64,000 bases of DNA, from contig OZ245015.1 in NCBI GenBank assembly GCA_965223705.1, positions 4,128,001 to 4,192,000 on the forward strand, written 5' to 3'. A program made the translations under genes and the position numbers. Positions 1,400-63,023 of this stretch are shown piece after piece. Numbering within the stretch: the stretch's first letter is position 1; each line of letters begins with the position of its first letter. Source of the DNA: Myxococcota bacterium (GTDB lineage Bacteria > Myxococcota_A > UBA9160 > UBA6930). The notes below the pieces were generated by a model. It was not told the origin of the DNA. It made no database searches and worked only from the letters and a program-made list of their open reading frames with translations.

Positions 1400-2599
1400 C
1401 TAGGTCCCCCCGGCCGCTGCTTCCGCCGCACGGACCACCGCGGTGATCGCTACGCCGTGGCGGAGCGCCAAGCGCCTGCAGTCGTCGTACTCCGCGGACA
1501 CCGAGGCCGAACCATCCGGTTTTTGGGCGATTTTGACCCGCACCGCCCCGTACTCCGTCGAGACGCGTCGGGATTCCCGGGCGAGCACCCACCGATCGGA
1601 CTCGCCGTAGCGGACGCCCAAGGTTCCGGTCTCGAGAAACAGACGCTCGGCCACAGGCTGACGCCGATCCGGCGGGCACAGGATCCGCAGCGCAAAGCCC
1701 GGCCGGTTTTTCTTTCCGATCGTGTGGGTAAGGGAGACGTCCACGGCTCCCGCATCGAGCAGCCGCTCCAGTACGTAGTCGTAGTGCTCGGGCTGAAGGT
1801 CGTCGAGCTGCGTCTCGATCACGCCGATGCGATCGGATCGGGCGAAGGGCACCTGGCCGAGCACGGCGCGCAGGACGTTCGGCAGCGAGCCTTCCCGCTC
1901 GTTGCCCGCGCCGTAGCCGACGCGGTCGATCACCATCTCGGGGAGCTGCCGAAATTCGTCGACCAACACGCGAAGGAGCGTCGCCCCGGTCGGCGTGACC
2001 GTCTCCCAAGCGATGTCCGCCGGGGCCACCGGAATGCCGCGCAGCAGTTCGAGCGTGGCGGGTGCCGGAACCGGCAGCGTGCCGTGCGCGGTCTCGACCT
2101 GGCCGTGCCCGAGGCTCGGCGGCGTCGCTGTGATCCGCCGAATCCCGAGCGCGTGGGTCGCGAAGGCCGCGCCGACGATGTCGACCAACGCGTCGACGGC
2201 GCCGACTTCGTGAAAGTGGATGTCGTCCACCGAGACGCCGTGAATCTTCGCTTCGGCCCGAGCGAGCGCGAGGAACATCGCCAGCGCCCGCTCGCGAACG
2301 GGCTCTTCGAGCTTCGCGCCCTCGATGCGGTTGCCGATCTCTTCGAGTGTGCGCCGACCGACGGGCTTGCCGCCGCCGCCGACAGCGACGTAGCGAGCGG
2401 CGATCGCGCCACGCATCACCTTGCGGACCCGCAGCGAAAAGGGGACGCCCAACCCGTCGAGGCCCTCGACGAGCTCTTTGCGCGACAAGCCGAGGTCGAA
2501 AAGAGCGCCGAGAAACATATTGCCCGCGATGCCGGAAAAGGTGTCGAGGTGCAGGATCTGTTCGCCGCGAGCGGCGCCCTTCGTTTTCTTCCGACTCAT
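1400..2599 (-). CDS. larC: Nickel pincer cofactor biosynthesis protein LarC (Ni insertase)
   Basis: SGIAGNMFLGAL, IHFHEVGAVDA, HGTLPVPAPAT, VTPTGA, KKNRPG, ETGTLGVR and EYDDC motifs. Confidence 0.93.
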   Translation of the reverse strand: MSRKKTKGAARGEQILHLDTFSGIAGNMFLGALFDLGLSRKELVEGLDGLGVPFSLRVRKVMRGAIAARYVAVGGGGKPVGRRTLEEIGNRIEGAKLEEPVRERALAMFLALARAEAKIHGVSVDDIHFHEVGAVDALVDIVGAAFATHALGIRRITATPPSLGHGQVETAHGTLPVPAPATLELLRGIPVAPADIAWETVTPTGATLLRVLVDEFRQLPEMVIDRVGYGAGNEREGSLPNVLRAVLGQVPFARSDRIGVIETQLDDLQPEHYDYVLERLLDAGAVDVSLTHTIGKKNRPGFALRILCPPDRRQPVAERLFLETGTLGVRYGESDRWVLARESRRVSTEYGAVRVKIAQKPDGSASVSAEYDDCRRLALRHGVAITAVVRAAEAAAGGT

Positions 2600-2630
2600 G
2601 ACTCGCGGCCTACCCGGGTTGCAGCGGCCG

Positions 2631-3383
2631 TCATCGCTCGCGGTTGATCAAGGTAGCCACGACCGCGGCGCTGGTTCCATTGTCGATGTTCACGACGCTG
2701 ACGTTCGACGCACAGGAAGAAAGCATGCCCAGGAGCGCGGCCACGCCGCCGAACGATGCGCCGTAACCCGTGCTCGTCGGCACCGCGATCACCGGGCGGT
2801 CCACGAGCCCGGCCACAACGGAGGGCAGCGCGCCCTCCATACCCGCGACCACGATGAGCACGTGCGCAGCCCGCAATTGCGCGAGACGGTCGAGCAGGCG
2901 GTGGAGGCCCGCGACACCGACGTCCTCGACACATTCCACTTTGTTGCCGAGGCGGCGTGCGACAACGGCGGCCTCCGCTACGACCGGTGCATCGGCGCTC
3001 CCGGCGCTCACGACGAGCACGGTGCCGACCCCGGTGATGGGGACTTCGCCGGGCCCCCACCAAAGCGTGCGGCTCGCCGCGTCGTATTCCGCCCCCGGAA
3101 AGAGCGCGAGCGTATCCCGAGCCAGTTCGGCGTCGACGCGCGTCGCCAGCGCGGGCTGATTCGAATCGCGCAGCCCGCGTGCAACCGCGGCCAAGGTCTC
3201 CGGGGTTTTTCCGGCGCCGAAAATGATCTCGGGCAGGCCCTGTCGAACCGCGCGATGGGTATCGACGCGCGCGCCCGGAACGTCGCGGAACGGAAGCTCC
3301 GCCAACGCGACCATCGCGTTCTCGGGGGAAAGCGCACCCCTCTGGACGCGCTCGAGAAGTTCTAGCAACTGCTCTTTTTGCAC
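2631..3383 (-). CDS. larB: Nickel pincer cofactor biosynthesis protein LarB (PurE-like carboxylase/hydrolase)
   Basis: PEIIFGAGKT, DVGVAGLHRL, VAGMEGALPSVV, PVIAVPTSTGYGA, VVNIDNG. Confidence 0.94.
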   Translation of the reverse strand: MQKEQLLELLERVQRGALSPENAMVALAELPFRDVPGARVDTHRAVRQGLPEIIFGAGKTPETLAAVARGLRDSNQPALATRVDAELARDTLALFPGAEYDAASRTLWWGPGEVPITGVGTVLVVSAGSADAPVVAEAAVVARRLGNKVECVEDVGVAGLHRLLDRLAQLRAAHVLIVVAGMEGALPSVVAGLVDRPVIAVPTSTGYGASFGGVAALLGMLSSCASNVSVVNIDNGTSAAVVATLINRER

Positions 3384-3430: not shown

Positions 3431-3982
3431 CTACGGTTCTTCGGGGAAGAGCGTGACGGGAATGCGGTAGAGCCCTTCGCGGTCGCGCACGGCGGTTTCC
3501 ACGCGCATCACGCTGCCGGTGCCACGGCGAACGGCCGACACCGCTTCGAGGGCAATACTTCCGTCGCGCGGAACGAGCACCGGAACCGAGGGCCGGAGGT
3601 CTAGCGCCAAGAGCGTTCCGATGGCGCCGATCAAGTGCGAGGCGAGGATGTTCGCCACTTCCTGAAGCGCCGAAACGCGGAGCGCTTCGCGATGGTCGGG
3701 TCCGAGCAGCGTTTCGCCGAGGCGAGCGGCGGTACCTTCGGGAAAACGAATCGCAACGGTTCCGCGAACGGGCCCTTCGATCTCAAAGAACGCAGCAGCG
3801 CACGTGGGTTCCGGATCGCGCGCACCGACGGCGGAGAGAGCCAACACCTGCGGGACATCCATCCAGCACTGCTTTTCGAGAAGAACGGCGAGGGCATCCG
3901 CGGCGTGGCCCGCGCCGACGTTCACCATCTCACGAAGGCGATCGACCCGATCGGACAGAACGTGGCAAGACAGTTGCGTCAT
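3431..3982 (-). CDS. cheC: CheC-family CheY-P phosphatase (DifG-like)
   Basis: Two ExxN motifs (LREMVNVGAGHAADAL; SALQEVANIL); start overlaps the cheA stop. Confidence 0.85.
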   Translation of the reverse strand: MTQLSCHVLSDRVDRLREMVNVGAGHAADALAVLLEKQCWMDVPQVLALSAVGARDPEPTCAAAFFEIEGPVRGTVAIRFPEGTAARLGETLLGPDHREALRVSALQEVANILASHLIGAIGTLLALDLRPSVPVLVPRDGSIALEAVSAVRRGTGSVMRVETAVRDREGLYRIPVTLFPEEP

Positions 3983-5597
3983 AGGAGGTGGTGGAGATCC
4001 AATGTGAAGACCGGGCTGCCGTTCCCGAGGACAGTGAGCCCGGCGAGCGCTCGGGCCGCGTCGAGGAACGCCGGCACGGGCTTGACGTAAATTTCTTCTT
4101 GGCCCGCGAGCCGGGTGACCCGGAGCGCGATCCGCGCGCCGCGAACTTCGGTGAGAACCAGGATCGCCGGCCCGTCTCCCGGATCGCTGGACGGGAGCGC
4201 CAGGGTTTCGGCCAGGTCGATCACCGGTACGGGCTCGTCATCGATCAAGGCGAACGCTTCCCGCCCGCTGTGCTCGATCGTTTCCTGCGTCACTTCGAGC
4301 GCGCGCTCCACCTTGCCGATGGGGATCGCGACCATCTCGTTCGAAACGCCCACCAGCAGCACGCGCTGGACGGCGGCGGTGACGGGAACACCGAGGGCTG
4401 TCGACGTGCCGACGCCGAGCTGCGATTCGAGCTCGACCCAGCCGCCAAGGGACTCGACAGTCGCTTTGACGGCATCCATTCCGACGCCCCGACCAGAGAT
4501 CTCGGACACTTCATCGCGCGTGGAGAGACCGGGGCGGAAGACGAGCGCTGCGACTTCGCTCGCCGGAAGATCCTCAGCCAAATCGGCGTGGAGAAGGCCG
4601 GCGTCGACGGCGCGATCGCGAACGGATTCGAGGTCGATCCCGCCCCCGTCGTCACGGACAACCAGGCGAATCGAGTCTTTTTCGCGCTGGGCCGAGACCA
4701 CGATCTGCCCGACGCGATTCTTGCCCCGGCGGACCCGCTCATCGGGGTCCTCGATTCCGTGGTCCACCGCGTTGCGCACGAGGTGAACGAGGGGATCGCT
4801 CAGGCGATCGAGAATGGCGCGGTCGAGCTCGAGCTCCGCACCCTCGAAGACCACTTCGACTTTCTTGCCGGCGGCTCGCGCGACGTCGCGGGCCACCCTC
4901 GGCAGGGGGTCGAGCACGCGCAACAGCGGCGCTGTCCGCAGGGAAAGCGCCCGACGCTGTAGCTCACTGACCGCTCGATCCATGCGGTCGAGCCCCGACG
5001 AAACCGTCCCGCTGGATTCTTCGGAACCGATACGCACCTGCCGAGACGTCAGCACGACTTCGCCTACGGTCGACAGAAAGCGATCCAACGTCTCGGTGCG
5101 GACCCGGACGCTCGGCGTCGCCGTCGGTCCTTTCGCGGGCTGGGCGTCGGCTGGACCTACCGACGCCCGGGCGCTTTTTTTGGTTCTCGCCGCTCGTGGG
5201 TTTCGATCGGCGGCTCATCGCTCGGAACGACCGGCACGGCCAACGCCTCGAGCAGCTCGGCGCCAGCGGCCGGAACCTCGCGGCCCTCGCGAACCGTTGC
5301 CACCATTCCCTCGAGACCTTCGAGTCCGTGAAAGAGAGCGGACAGGCCCGCTTCGTCTATGTGTCCCTCGGTGCGATACGCGTCCATGCGATCTTCCAAG
5401 CGATGCGCCACGTCGGCGATGCTGTCGTAACCGATAGAGGCGGCCATCCCCTTGATCGAGTGAGCCATTCGAAAGGCCGTGTCGATCGCCTCCGCTCGGT
5501 CGGGATCTTTTTCCAGTGCGAGCAATTCTCTCGAGAGCTCGGCGAGATGCTCCGTCGCCTCCTCGAGAAAGAGCTTCTTATACTTCTCGAGATCCAC
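3979..5597 (-). CDS. cheA: Chemotaxis histidine kinase CheA (DifE-like), split by a -1 frame change at about 5175-5181
   Basis: The HPt domain (GTG 5597; FLEEATEHL..FRMAHSIKGMA) ends at TAG 5157-5159. The -1 frame continues KKSARASVGPADAQPAKGPTATPSVRVRTETLDR into the dimerisation, HATPase (HLVRNAVDHG, DDGGG, SGRGVGMD) and CheW-like domains. The joined product is 539 aa. Confidence 0.9.
5142..5181 (-). other. Candidate -1 programmed ribosomal frameshift signal
   Basis: mRNA: CC A_AAA_AAA, 6-nt spacer GCGCCC, stem GGGCGUCGG, loop UAGGUCCAG, stem CCGACGCCC (perfect 9 bp). Confidence 0.7.
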
Positions 5598-5968
5598 TAC
5601 TCGCTCTTCTCGAGCACCTTCCCGAGCGTCGCGATTACGGCTTCGGGTTTGAACGGCTTCACGATGAAGTCGAGCGCGCCGGCTTCCAGGGCCTCGGCGA
5701 CGAGGGACTCTTGGCCGAGCGCGCTGCACATCACGATCGCCGCGTTGGGATCGACCTTCACGATGGTTTTGACCGCATCGATTCCGGATCGCTTCGGCAT
5801 CACGATATCCATCATCGTGACGGTGGGGTGCAGCTCCTCCCACTTGTCGACGACTTCGAAGCCGTCGGAAGCTTCTCCGACCACTTCCCAACCTTCCGGC
5901 TCCACAATGTCTCGGATCATCTGCCGCATGAACGATGCGTCATCGGCGACGAGGATACGCTTCATCAA
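5597..5968 (-). CDS. cheY: Single-domain response regulator CheY (DifD-like)
   Basis: ILVADD, MDIVMP, MCSALGQ, FIVKPF. Confidence 0.93.
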   Translation of the reverse strand: MMKRILVADDASFMRQMIRDIVEPEGWEVVGEASDGFEVVDKWEELHPTVTMMDIVMPKRSGIDAVKTIVKVDPNAAIVMCSALGQESLVAEALEAGALDFIVKPFKPEAVIATLGKVLEKSE

Positions 5969-6429
5969 AAACCTCCGTGCAGCGAGCTCTCTCCGACGAC
6001 GCCGCGCCGAAAAATCTCACCGACTTGTTGAATCAATTTCTGGGGATCCAGAATTTGCACGACGCGCCCATCGATGGGCCGACGCTCTGCGACGATCGAA
6101 CCGTCCCGCGCGCGCGAGGCGTGGCCGTCGACCAGACCGCAGACGCGGTCGACGGGGACGCCGATCCGAGCGCTCTCCTCGGCTTCGGCCAGGACGAGCA
6201 GGTGCTCCGGCGTCTCGAGATCATTGCGATCGATCTCGAACAAGACTTCCCGGTGGATTACCGGGAGCGCATCGCCGTGGTGATTGGTGATCGCTCCGGT
6301 TCGAGGCGGGACCGTGGGGATACACGCGAGCGGACCGAGCTCTGCCACCTCGGCGACGGATGCGATGGGAAGGGCGTAGGTCGTCTCGTCGACCTCGAAC
6401 AACAAGAGACGCGCCGCCGGACCGTTCAT
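5965..6429 (-). CDS. cheW: CheW coupling protein (DifC-like)
   Basis: [48 protein letters not shown]; lies between the MCP and cheY. Confidence 0.85.
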
Positions 6430-7697
6430 GACTCGCTGCCGTTTCCCGCTCGGAAGCGCTGCGACAGTGTCCGCATCGCGTCCGCGCGCTGCGTCAAGGC
6501 TTCGGCGGAGCCGACGATCTCGCCCATGGAGTCGAGCTGCTGTTTCGACGCTCCGGCGACTTCTTCCATCGACGCTGCGTTCGTCTCGGCGACCCGGCCG
6601 ATCTCCTGCATCGACTGCACCATGCGTTCGGCGTCTTGCGACTGATTGTCGGCCTCGTTGAAGATCTCTTCGGCGCGCGCCGCGGCTTCGCCGACGGCAC
6701 CGCGAATCTGTTCCAGCGAGAGAGCGATCGTGTTCACGTCCTCGCGACCCTCGCCGATGACCTGGCCGGACTCCCGCATCTCGTCCGCCACGTTCTGCGT
6801 GTCGCCCTCGATCTCGTTGATGAGCTTCGAAATCTCGTCGGCACTTCGTGCGGCGCTCTCGGCGAGCTTGCGGATCTCGTCGGCGACGACCGCGAAGCCG
6901 CGCCCCGCCTCGCCGGCGCGCGCGGCCTCGATCGACGCGTTCAACGACAGCAGGTTCGTTCGCGACGCGACGCTCGTAATGATCTCGGTGATCTGGTGAA
7001 CGTGTCGGGTTTTCGCTTCGAGCTGGAAGACCATCGCTCCCGACTGCTCGACGCGTTCGAAGACACTGCGCATCTTTTCAATCGCGAGCCGCGAGACGTC
7101 GACACCCGAGTTCGCTTTCTGATTCGCTTCGGCCGCGAAGCCAAACGCTTCGCGCGCCCGTCCGGCGTTGAGCTCGATGGCGCTCGCCATTTCGCCCGCG
7201 AGACGCGTCACGTCCTCGATGAGGCGCTGTTGCTGTGCGACACCCGCCGCGACTTCGCCGACCGTGGTGCAGATCCCCTCGCCGCTGCTGCTGATCGAAC
7301 TCGAGGCACTCGCCAGGTGAGCGGCGGCAAAAGAAACGCCTTCCGACGTCGATTGGACCTCGCGCACGAGTTCGCGTAGCGCCTCGAGCATGTTCGAAAG
7401 ACCGGCCACGAAATCGTGTCGCTCGTCGGGAAACTGCGGCGACGCACGCAGTGCGGCGATGTCCGAAAGATCGCCTGCTCCCATCCGTTCCGCAGCGGCC
7501 AGAAGCTCGTGTTGGTGGTGCAGGAAACCGCGAGACGCGACGAATCCGGCGGCGGCGGCGAGGCCCGCGCAGAGAATCAACCCGACCCAAGCGGGCGCCC
7601 CCGCCCAAATCGCCCGGGTCGCCCACGGCGTGAGTGCGCCGAGCCACGCGATGGCGACGGTCGCAGCGACGAACTTATGGGTGAGTGATAGCCGCAC
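6426..7697 (-). CDS. Methyl-accepting chemotaxis protein with two TM helices and no periplasmic sensor domain (DifA-like)
   Basis: Signalling hairpin [34 protein letters not shown]; two closely spaced N-terminal hydrophobic helices and a HAMP-like segment. Confidence 0.93.
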
Positions 7698-7760: not shown

Positions 7761-8729
7761 TTAGAAGTGCCGCCAGCCTGCGCCACGGCGAATGCGGCCG
7801 TTTCGGTAACGGAGGTTTCGCGCGGTGATGATCCCGATCTGACGAACTGGCACACCGATCCGAGCCGCGATGCTGGCCTCGCTCCCGGCGCGCGGGGACG
7901 CGGTGAAGAGCAACTCGTAGTCCTCTCCGAAAGCGGTCAATACATCGAGCGGCCGCTTTCCCAGCCGTTCGCAGGCGCGATCGAAACCCCGCCGCCGCGG
8001 CAGCGTCGCCAGATCGATCTCCGCGCCGACTCGAGAGGCTTTCGCGAGATGCGCCAGGTCGGACAAGAGCCCGTCGGAGAGATCGATACATGCGCCGACG
8101 CCCGGCAGACGCGCCAGGCGTCGACCGGCTTCGACGCGCGGTTGCGGCAGCGGGATGCGGTGCGCCGGGCGCCGCCCGGGGTCGGCGGCTCGCCGCGCGT
8201 GGGCGAGGCCCGCCTCTCCCAGGCGACCGGTCACGAAAACTCGCTGTCCGACCCGAGCACCGGATCGCGTGAGGGCCGTGCCGCGCGAGACGGCTCCGAC
8301 CACCGTCGTGTGCAGGGAGAATTGCCGCGCTCGCGTGACGTTCCCGCCGACCACGGGACAACCGAGCGATCGCCCGGCGCGCGCCGCGCCGCGCAAGGCA
8401 CCCCGCGCGAGCGCCGCATCGCTTGAGGGCGGAGCGGCGAGGGACAAGAGTGCGCCCAACGGGCGCGCGCCCATCGCCGCGAGATCGGACAGGGCGCCCC
8501 GCAGCGCGCGAGCGCCGATCCGTGCCGGTCGCTCGGCGTCGATGCGAAAATGAACTCCGTCGACGACGGCGTCGACGCTCAGAGCGACATCTTCGCCGGG
8601 CTTCGGGCGCAGCAGCGCTGCGTCGTCGCCGATGCCCAGGTGGATTCCCGACGAAGCCTCGGCGTCCTTGCGCGCCTCGCGCTCGATCTGTTCGATGAGG
8701 CCGAATTCGCCGAGTTCCCGGAGCTGCAT
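7761..8729 (-). CDS. thiL: Thiamine-monophosphate kinase
   Basis: LGEFGLI, GIGDDAA, LSDLAAMGARP, CIDLSDGL, GEDYELLFT. Confidence 0.95.
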   Translation of the reverse strand: MQLRELGEFGLIEQIEREARKDAEASSGIHLGIGDDAALLRPKPGEDVALSVDAVVDGVHFRIDAERPARIGARALRGALSDLAAMGARPLGALLSLAAPPSSDAALARGALRGAARAGRSLGCPVVGGNVTRARQFSLHTTVVGAVSRGTALTRSGARVGQRVFVTGRLGEAGLAHARRAADPGRRPAHRIPLPQPRVEAGRRLARLPGVGACIDLSDGLLSDLAHLAKASRVGAEIDLATLPRRRGFDRACERLGKRPLDVLTAFGEDYELLFTASPRAGSEASIAARIGVPVRQIGIITARNLRYRNGRIRRGAGWRHF

Positions 8730-46834: not shown

Positions 46835-46866
46835 AGGCGGGAAGCGTGAGCTTCCCGCCTTTTTTT
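46835..46866 (+). terminator. Intrinsic terminator
   Basis: AGGCGGGAAGC-GTGA-GCTTCCCGCCT followed by a T-run. Confidence 0.9.
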
Positions 46867-61502: not shown

Positions 61503-63023
61503 CTAGCGCGAGGAATAGAAGACGACGCGCGCACCGTCGCGTGCCTCCTGCCTGCGCATCATGACGCTGCCGTCGGGAAGACGCGCGATAAAGCGCTGAG
61601 AGCCCGGTGGGATCGGGAGCGGTCCCGAGAACGGCGCGGGCCCGAACAAGCGCCCTGCGACCTCGACCAACGTCCCATCGGGCGCCTCGACGGACACCCT
61701 TGCGGGCGGAGTTTCGCGGACCGAGCGGTCCGGTTCGGAGACCGGCGCGATCGCCGCGGGTGCCTCGATCCCGTCCTCCGCGTCAGCACGTTGTCGTTGT
61801 TGCGAATCTTCGAGCCCGGGCGGCGGCGGGCTCGAGACAGGCGGCAGTGTGGCGGAAGGCTCCTCAACCGGGGCTTCTGCAACGCGGAGATCTTCCGTGA
61901 TCGCGGGCTGTTCCAGGGCCTGACCGTCGGGCTCCGCCGCCGCCCCACGGGCGGCGGGCGCAGGCGTGGGGCGAAACGAGACGGAAGGTGGCGCGAGATC
62001 GGTTTCGTGAACGAGAGACGCGATTTCCGTCTCTGAAGGTGCCGGCGAAGCCGTCGGCGTGGCCATACGCTGGAAAAAAAACGGGTCCGCCAACCCCACC
62101 AGACCGATCGCAATCAGTGTTCCCGAGGCCGCCCCCAAACCGAAGCGCCAGAAGTTCCGATCCGTGGCAGCCGTAGCGAGCCCGGGCGGCGGCGCCCACG
62201 GTGGCCGCGTCGCACTCGGACGCCGCGGCGGCGTCTTGCGCTGTGGGGCCGTTCGCTTCGGAGCACGCGCCGCGAGGCGCGGCTCAGAGGGCGGCGCCTC
62301 CTTGGGCGTTGCGCCTCGCAGCAACAAGTCGGACGCCGCGAAGTCGACGGCCCCGGGGCAGCCGTCGCTCTCCGCCCAAATCGCGTGAACGCGATCGGCC
62401 GAAAACACGTCCCGCCGCGTTGCGTCGAGGCGCCGAAGCTTCGCATCGACGTACGCGACACACTCGCTCGCGGCGAGCGGCGCGGTGTAGTTGACGCTTT
62501 CGACGGCCGAATGGGCGGACAGGCGCGACGACGCCTCGCACGGAACGGCGGCGAACGCGAACCGGAGCCGGCCCTCGCTCGCGTCGGCGAACTCGAACAA
62601 CTGGCGGGTCGTTTCCGCAGGCAGAGAATCGGCTTCGTCGATGAGTAGGATCAAGCCGCGAACGGAACGATCGCTCGACGCCTCCGCCAGCAGGGCCCCT
62701 TCCGGATCCGGCTCATCATCGATTCCCAGGGAAAGCAGTGCCCAACGACAGAGTTCGTCCGCGGTGAGCATCGGATACGGCAGGTAGACCGGCGCCCAGC
62801 TCGCTGCCAGCCGACAGGCGAGCACATGGAGCATCAGCGTCTTTCCATAACCCGGCGGTGCCACCAGGAACGGGTGCCGATCGTCCTCACCGTCGATTGC
62901 GCTTTGCATCGCGTCGAGGGCTTCTTCGGCGGCGGGCCGTGCCACGTAGAGGGACGGGTCGGCAGAGTTCAGGAACGGATCCCGCCGGACCGGAGCCCCC
63001 TCGCGAATCACGCCACCCGCCAT
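61503..63023 (-). CDS. ExeA/GspA-like AAA ATPase with TM helix, Pro-rich linker and small C-terminal (PEGA-like) domain
   Basis: DPFLNSADP, APPGYGKT, LLIDEAD, SDGCPG, hydrophobic segment, Pro/Ala-rich linker. Confidence 0.72.
   Translation of the reverse strand: MAGGVIREGAPVRRDPFLNSADPSLYVARPAAEEALDAMQSAIDGEDDRHPFLVAPPGYGKTLMLHVLACRLAASWAPVYLPYPMLTADELCRWALLSLGIDDEPDPEGALLAEASSDRSVRGLILLIDEADSLPAETTRQLFEFADASEGRLRFAFAAVPCEASSRLSAHSAVESVNYTAPLAASECVAYVDAKLRRLDATRRDVFSADRVHAIWAESDGCPGAVDFAASDLLLRGATPKEAPPSEPRLAARAPKRTAPQRKTPPRRPSATRPPWAPPPGLATAATDRNFWRFGLGAASGTLIAIGLVGLADPFFFQRMATPTASPAPSETEIASLVHETDLAPPSVSFRPTPAPAARGAAAEPDGQALEQPAITEDLRVAEAPVEEPSATLPPVSSPPPPGLEDSQQRQRADAEDGIEAPAAIAPVSEPDRSVRETPPARVSVEAPDGTLVEVAGRLFGPAPFSGPLPIPPGSQRFIARLPDGSVMMRRQEARDGARVVFYSSR

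Follow-up and report, generated by a model that had tools for sequence, protein, structure and literature searches.

A chemotaxis kinase gene in two reading frames

The gene considered here is the cheA of a chemotaxis (che) operon in a Myxococcota genome (assembly GCA_965223705.1, contig OZ245015.1; 4.56 Mb, 64.7% GC, 2 contigs). It lies in a stretch of 64,000 nucleotides (nt), positions 4,128,001 to 4,192,000 of that contig, which was analysed as a whole and is called the window below; coordinates are those of the window, and all che genes are on its minus strand. The histidine phosphotransfer (HPt) domain and the kinase domains of this CheA are encoded in different reading frames, which meet at a run of seven A's. 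The junction consists of the following features:

5157..5597, minus strand: zero-frame open reading frame (ORF) with the HPt (P1) domain, 146 aa, GTG start (Pfam Hpt, E = 3.7e-16)
3979..5175, minus strand: −1-frame continuation, from AGC (5175-5173) through an Ala/Pro-rich linker to the P3 dimerisation, P4 HATPase and P5 CheW-like domains (Pfam H-kinase_dim, HATPase_c, CheW)
5175..5181, minus strand: slippery run A7, phase CC A_AAA_AAA (X_XXY_YYZ in the HPt frame), from the sequence
5169..5174, minus strand: spacer GCGCCC, 6 nt, between heptamer and stem, from the sequence
5142..5168, minus strand: stem-loop found by folding, 5' arm 5168-5159, 7-nt loop, 3' arm 5151-5142
5157..5159, minus strand: zero-frame stop UAG at the stem/loop border, five codons past the run, from the sequence

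Taken together, the two ORFs amount to a CheA of P1-P3-P4-P5 that lacks P2, and the NCBIfam CheA profile is divided between them, with its positions 3-118 on the first ORF and 269-664 on the second. The HPt ORF closes with GAA CCA AAA AAA GCG CCC GGG CGT CGG TAG (EPKKAPGRR*). A first-pass annotation, made from the letters alone, had assigned the HPt to this same 146-aa frame (5597-5157, with the same terminal residues), and the Pfam match now bears that out. It had also placed the rest of CheA in the −1 frame with no start before the dimerisation domain: the open kinase frame spans 5214-3979 and contains no ATG, GTG or TTG 5' of a TTG at 5088, which itself falls inside the conserved P3 motif. 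A shift at the run would join 141 aa to 398 aa, giving a predicted trans-frame product of 539 aa, and this recomputed length is the one first proposed for full-length CheA.

The in-phase CC A_AAA_AAA heptamer, 6-nt spacer and hairpin of the earlier description were all recovered, with the run at 5181-5175 and the stem beginning at 5168. The stem comprises 10 bp, nine of them Watson-Crick and one G-U, with the arms GGGCGUCGG(U) and (G)CCGACGCCC; the minimum free energy (MFE) of the hairpin is −24.5 kcal/mol (z = −2.43 against dinucleotide shuffles). The genome encodes a tRNA-Lys(UUU), and its 16S tail, or anti-Shine-Dalgarno (anti-SD) sequence, is canonical. AAA makes up 26% of its Lys codons (about 7 per 1000 codons), and A/T runs of at least 7 nt occur 95 times in the whole genome.

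Conservation of the frame break

To see how far the break extends we collected orthologues in three sets. In a first sample, 33 of 41 related genomes were matched and 29 orthologous loci fetched; 26 of these show the −1 relation between HPt and kinase together with a junction run of A7-A10, and the other three have neither break nor run. Scanning of named genome records yielded 80 loci, of which four duplicated earlier ones and were dropped. All 21 loci of the close set (47-66% identity) carry the −1 break with an in-phase run, and all 53 distant CheAs with an HPt match (34-46% identity) are in frame, with a P1-P3 gap of 200-1400 nt; six of the 80 lacked an HPt match. The nearest cultured Myxococcaceae CheAs, 41-44% identical to that of the window, are likewise in frame. 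For the order to which the window's genome belongs, an orthologue was found in 160 of 193 genomes, and 118 further upstream regions were fetched, six of them cut by contig ends. The resulting tally covers 142 orthologous loci from 141 species-level genomes in 10 families:

Kinase in the −1 frame, run present (A7 66, A8 13, A9 13, A10 32): 124 of 142 loci
Kinase in the +1 frame, run present: 3 of 142 loci
In frame, run present: 5 of 142 loci
In frame, no run: 10 of 142 loci
Frame break, no run: 0 of 142 loci

The sister order of the same class contains the arrangement as well, eight of its 14 genomes having the −1 relation with a run (A7 twice, A9 five times, A11 once) and the remaining six being in frame without one. 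An alignment of orthologues had been proposed in the first-pass annotation as a check on the frame break, and break, run and phase are indeed kept in these eight genomes and in 124 of the 142 loci of the order. Beyond the class, the open frames that hold HPt matches are long (590-1144 aa), apart from three short ones.

The 10 in-frame orthologues that have no run carry an ordinary linker. They are scattered within the recoded clade of a quick IQ-TREE tree (L055 left out; qualitative use only), which suggests that the arrangement has been lost repeatedly. Of the five loci that are in frame and have a run, one has A8 (L161), and the other four, all with A10, belong to one genus. In these four, a stop in the −1 frame follows 1-8 codons past the run, and they look like cases of reversed polarity in which slippage would give the short product, with the proviso that a fixed ON allele would look alike.

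Several features of the 124 loci confine the position at which the frames must be joined. No stop interrupts the kinase frame across the last seven A's in any of them, and in two loci the stretch from the last upstream kinase-frame stop to the zero-frame stop is just 19 nt long and centred on the run. Without exception among the 124, the codon 5' of AAA AAA has A as its last base (CCA 61, AAA 45, GAA 8, others 10). The zero-frame stop comes at most six codons past the run in 101 of 123 loci (median three codons), against a background, in the same frame of the kinase body, of a median 43 codons to the next stop, with 9.6% of positions six codons or fewer away. A stop so much closer to the run than this background suggests that a short, defined HPt product is under selection.

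Three further observations concern individual relatives. In L034, L037, L041, L043, L046, L050, L055 and their relatives the nucleotides around the run are near-invariant (GGTGGGGGGCGAACC, A7, GTCCNGAGCTAGAGCCCG), and the block takes in third codon positions and the TAG stop. One genome (G061) has two recoded cheA copies (L168 and L207), one with A10 and one with A7, which may be paralogues or stem from a mixture of strains in the bin (4% contamination). In a distant CheA paralogue from another family of the phylum (L244, G291:C2:114650-115950) the HPt and kinase frames differ, and the stretch between the two parts has no homopolymer; possible reasons are an error, a pseudogene or some other cause.

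Stimulatory elements and run length

Folding of the 45 nt past the run gave, over the first 44 unique loci, a mean MFE of −22.5 kcal/mol, compared with −15.3 in control windows from the same genes. The sliding MFE profile has its sole dip at offset 0, while GC remains at 0.77-0.79 across 60 nt, and shuffle z-scores below −2 were obtained at 21 of the 44 loci versus 7 of 132 controls. The downstream helices are 6-16 bp long, begin after spacers of 0 to 13 nt and differ in sequence by subclade. Of the stem's expected covariation, raised in the first-pass annotation, a part was found: the hairpin is present at the run in A7/A8 relatives, while covariation is modest, consisting of two pairs changed on both sides in one nine-sequence subgroup (9-bp stem, 97.5% paired) for which 11 of 500 shuffles match the observed score.

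Upstream of the run, complementarity to the anti-SD peaks in 8-mers starting 15-12 nt 5' of the heptamer, at a mean of −5.4 to −5.9 kcal/mol vs a background of −1.5, and the amino acids encoded at this SD-like element differ among subclades. Both elements follow run length (p-values here are overstated by kinship, related genomes not being independent):

A7/A8 runs, n = 79: MFE past the run −23.1, next window −17.6, paired p = 3e-9; SD-like element, mean −6.5 kcal/mol
A9/A10 runs, n = 44: MFE past the run −14.8, next window −13.6, paired p = 0.23; SD-like element, mean −3.7 kcal/mol

An SD-like element of −6 kcal/mol or better accompanies 52% of A7, 69% of A8, 15% of A9 and 23% of A10 runs, and 6% of background windows. 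Each of the two run classes occurs in several families, and the hairpin difference between them holds within family f11 alone (p = 1e-4). The presence of stimulators with short runs and their lack with long ones is the pattern seen among dnaX genes: stimulators around a minimal heptamer point to ribosomal frameshifting, and a long bare run to polymerase slippage. The window, with its A7 run, 6-nt spacer, 10-bp stem and weak SD-like element, falls in the first of these classes, that of short runs.

Mechanism of the frame change

The anatomy of the junction, its conservation and the tie between stimulatory elements and short runs are all matters of observation. On comparative grounds it is highly probable that recoding of some kind, ribosomal or transcriptional, takes place at the cheA A-run, and the conservation across the order upholds the original proposal of one gene with two products made by programmed recoding, with no error involved. 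For the window's cheA in particular we favour −1 programmed ribosomal frameshifting at the run, for which support is good though indirect and to which we give somewhat better than even chances. Standard decoding would yield a free 146-aa HPt (P1) protein ending at the UAG five codons past the run. Some ribosomes would pause at the 10-bp hairpin that starts 6 nt 3' of the run; the two tRNA-Lys(UUU) on AAA AAA would then slip one base backwards on A_AAA_AAA, and the ribosome would read on in the −1 frame to produce the 539-aa P1-P3-P4-P5 CheA. Slippage on the ribosome, and its efficiency, are what we infer from this arrangement, and the free HPt would presumably act in trans as substrate of the kinase core, as shuttle or as sink.

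Besides the kinship of the genomes and the modest covariation, a number of findings weigh against ribosomal frameshifting. The window's own SD-like element is weak at −3.3 kcal/mol, in agreement with the first reading, which had seen no convincing internal SD there. In nine of the first 44 loci the main helix lies 13 nt past the run, farther than is usual for a −1 stimulator. The kinase is in the +1 frame, out of reach of a −1 ribosomal shift, at L131 and L150 (one genus; GAA AAA AAG, with strong hairpin and SD-like element) and at L180 (A10 run). These three loci could lose one A in the transcript or undergo a −2 ribosomal slip, and they fit transcriptional slippage better, the +1 change being obtainable by dropping one A.

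Programmed transcriptional slippage is indeed the chief alternative, and one that we consider possible though rather unlikely for the window: the polymerase would add one A (or drop two), so that part of the mRNAs would have A8 and encode the fused CheA under normal decoding. Any A-run is a potential site of polymerase slippage; moreover, 45 of the 124 loci with the −1 relation and a run have A9-A10 and one sister-order locus has A11, and the A9/A10 loci are without hairpin or SD-like element, like the A9 site of Thermus dnaX. In another gene, slippage efficiency rises with run length, from 10% at A7 to 40% at A9 and 63% at A11, and a non-conserved direction of shift has been taken as a sign of transcriptional realignment (Antonov 2013, PMC3711429). 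Against this explanation for the window stands its run of only A7, the minimum, about nine or more being needed for efficient polymerase slippage. In addition, the hairpin and SD-like element are specific to short-run loci and have no known role in polymerase slippage, the downstream hairpin because the polymerase copies the run before reaching it. Nor is a stable structure evident directly 5' of the run, of the kind found in hairpin-stimulated transcriptional slippage (MFE −17.4 vs −15.3 in controls; −18.6 vs −16.4 in the larger set).

That the HPt and a P1-less kinase are two separate genes, translated independently through coupling or reinitiation near the HPt stop, is very improbable. Split CheA systems do exist (CheA3/CheA4 of Rhodobacter sphaeroides), and at 18 of 41 loci a GTG, ATG or TTG does occur in the kinase frame between run and P3 (three of the 44 loci, without the P3 anchor pattern, were left out of this count). 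The other 23 nevertheless have no canonical start from 25 codons 5' of the run through P3, the window's kinase frame has none before the TTG inside P3, and two genes would leave unexplained an in-phase A-run that is kept in 124 loci and lost upon fusion of the frames.

We give equally little credence to phase variation at the DNA level, in which replication slippage would toggle the run between OFF (split) and ON (fused) lengths. Homopolymers mediate phase variation in many bacteria, and five loci are in frame with a run. The frame relation is nonetheless constant in 124 loci although the run ranges from A7 to A10, the 3' end of the run keeping a fixed phase, and the codon 5' of AAA AAA varies among CCA, AAA, GAA, GCA and others, which suggests substitutions or whole-codon changes and not single-base indels. 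Four of the five in-frame loci are the A10 loci of one genus with a −1 stop after the run, which resemble recoding of reversed polarity. No length variant appeared in the assembled contigs of four sequencing runs, though contigs drop rare variants.

These contigs also bear on the accuracy of the assembly. Logan contigs of four runs cross the junction, and all give A7 (0 differences, 0 gaps), as opposed to the A8 that the first-pass annotation had named as the sign of an assembly error; the four runs are two samples of one study, possibly the assembly's own source, and the data are DNA-type contigs, no RNA run being listed for the stretch. A crude genome-wide screen for frame switches at A/T runs of at least 7 nt returned eight candidates, cheA among them. 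The other seven, judged by eye, were Arg-rich junk frames or ordinary gene ends and were rejected, so the assembly is not riddled with homopolymer breaks. The window contains two more homopolymers, T7 at 46860-46866 (C1:4174860) and A8 at 62074-62081 (C1:4190074), neither of which passed the screen. Although a 2-contig genome hints at long reads, which are prone to homopolymer errors, and the relative L161 has A8 in frame, a homopolymer error in assembly or sequencing, or a recent inactivating frameshift (pseudogene), is the least probable explanation of all, given the A7 contigs and the outcome of the screen, the identical break in 124 independently assembled genomes and the protein-level conservation kept in both halves (identity 55-71% for the kinase, 50-72% for the HPt).

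Considering the lineages jointly, we tentatively propose, as an idea that may well prove wrong, that selection acts on how much free HPt is made relative to full-length CheA, and that lineages arrive at this ratio by interchangeable means. Lineages with A7/A8, SD-like element and hairpin would use ribosomal −1 frameshifting, those with bare A9-A11 runs would use transcriptional slippage, and in the one genus with an in-frame A10 run and a −1 stop slippage would make the short product. If this is true, free P1 would serve a P2-less chemosensory kinase as a tuned phosphate shuttle or sink acting in trans, and the gene would be a cellular counterpart of dnaX inside a signalling pathway.

Relation to known recoded genes

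The closest likeness is to dnaX. In Escherichia coli a −1 frameshift at A_AAA_AAG, with an upstream SD and a downstream hairpin, gives the tau and gamma products; in Thermus thermophilus transcriptional slippage occurs at A9; and in Chlorobi dnaX is present as two ORFs, with recoding needed for the long product. Like dnaX, cheA has an A-rich slippery site between domains, from which one gene would give a short and a long product. It has short-run lineages with SD-like element and hairpin and long-run lineages with a bare run, and it has both polarities, in that 124 loci need a shift to make the long product and four to five are in frame, with a −1 stop just past the run. The differences are that cheA encodes a chemotaxis histidine kinase and not a polymerase subunit, and is known here from sequence alone; that its heptamer is A_AAA_AAA as opposed to A_AAA_AAG; and that its SD-like element ends about 6-7 nt 5' of the heptamer as opposed to 10 nt in dnaX.

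As with the OrfA/OrfAB proteins of IS3/IS1 transposases, the zero frame ends soon past an A-rich heptamer, fusion would come about by a −1 shift, and a stem-loop lies downstream; unlike those elements, cheA is part of a conserved che operon on the chromosome, acts in signalling and is orthologous across two orders. In E. coli copA a −1 frameshift releases the N-terminal domain CopA(Z), and recoding in a linker would similarly provide a free N-terminal domain beside the full-length multidomain protein in cheA, with the difference that the copA frameshift makes the short product and the cheA frameshift would make the long one in most lineages. P1 function is separated from the kinase core, and P1 is phosphorylatable in trans, also in previously known CheA isoforms and split CheAs, i.e. 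CheA-L and CheA-S of E. coli, which arise by alternative initiation, and CheA3 and CheA4 of R. sphaeroides; these rely on a second start or on separate genes, and the window's cheA would instead be split by recoding at a slippery run.

To our knowledge, conserved programmed frameshifting occurs in few cellular (non-mobile, non-viral) bacterial genes. With the present case, if true, a signalling kinase would join them, one that is kept across more than 130 species-level genomes from two orders of uncultured Myxococcota. No description of −1 recoding of cheA was found in full-text literature searches, nor at the terms looked up in the Atkins 2016 recoding review (PMC5009743), nor in the main text and two of the three supplements of the Antonov 2013 GeneTack survey (PMC3711429). 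The first-pass annotation knew of no such case, and the searches concur, returning an unrelated +1 frameshift hotspot alone, CCC CGG C in E. coli cheA, predicted by FSscan and supported by a reporter assay only (PMC2790909). It differs in site, direction and organism and has no conserved frame break. New here are the tally for the whole order, the sister-order occurrence, the variants with a +1 phase or with a run in frame, and the link between run length and stimulators. The loci form a natural series of A7, A8, A9, A10, in frame with a run and in frame without one, in which stimulators come and go with run length, and with this series the respective shares of ribosomal and polymerase slippage can be tested directly. 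For chemotaxis, recoding predicts free P1 at a fixed ratio to the kinase, a stoichiometric device undescribed for CheA as far as the literature searches show. In current annotation, such cheA genes are likely called as two ORFs or as pseudogenes.

The che operon and its surroundings

The other genes of the operon, whose order is MCP-cheW-cheY-cheA-cheC/X, are as follows:

6426..7697, minus strand: methyl-accepting chemotaxis protein (MCP), 423 aa (Pfam and NCBIfam profile matches)
5965..6429, minus strand: cheW, 154 aa (Pfam match)
5597..5968, minus strand: cheY, 123 aa, directly 5' of cheA (Pfam and NCBIfam matches)
3431..3982, minus strand: cheC/cheX-type phosphatase, 183 aa (Pfam and NCBIfam matches)

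For the Dif-like pathway suggested in the first-pass annotation, the comparison covered this gene order, and the NCBIfam profiles of the operon's proteins returned no pathway-specific (Dif) name; a Dif-type pathway of Myxococcus would be marked by orthology to difA-difG and by a role in exopolysaccharide control. The cheY stop and the GTG start of the HPt ORF share 1 nt (TAGTG, 5595-5599), and the cheA stop overlaps the cheC start as ATGA (3979-3982); such overlapping junctions suggest translational coupling within the operon. A second, paralogous cheA (L002, C1:1602255-1603406), 36% identical to the kinase core, has a continuous open frame of 876 aa, so that just one of the genome's two cheA genes appears to be recoded. 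Upstream of the che operon lies an AIR synthase-related ORF (7761-8729), and 3' of it, at 1400-3383 on the minus strand, are a Ni_insertion ORF (LarC-like, Pfam E = 6.1e-129) and an AIR carboxylase-like (LarB/PurE-like) ORF.

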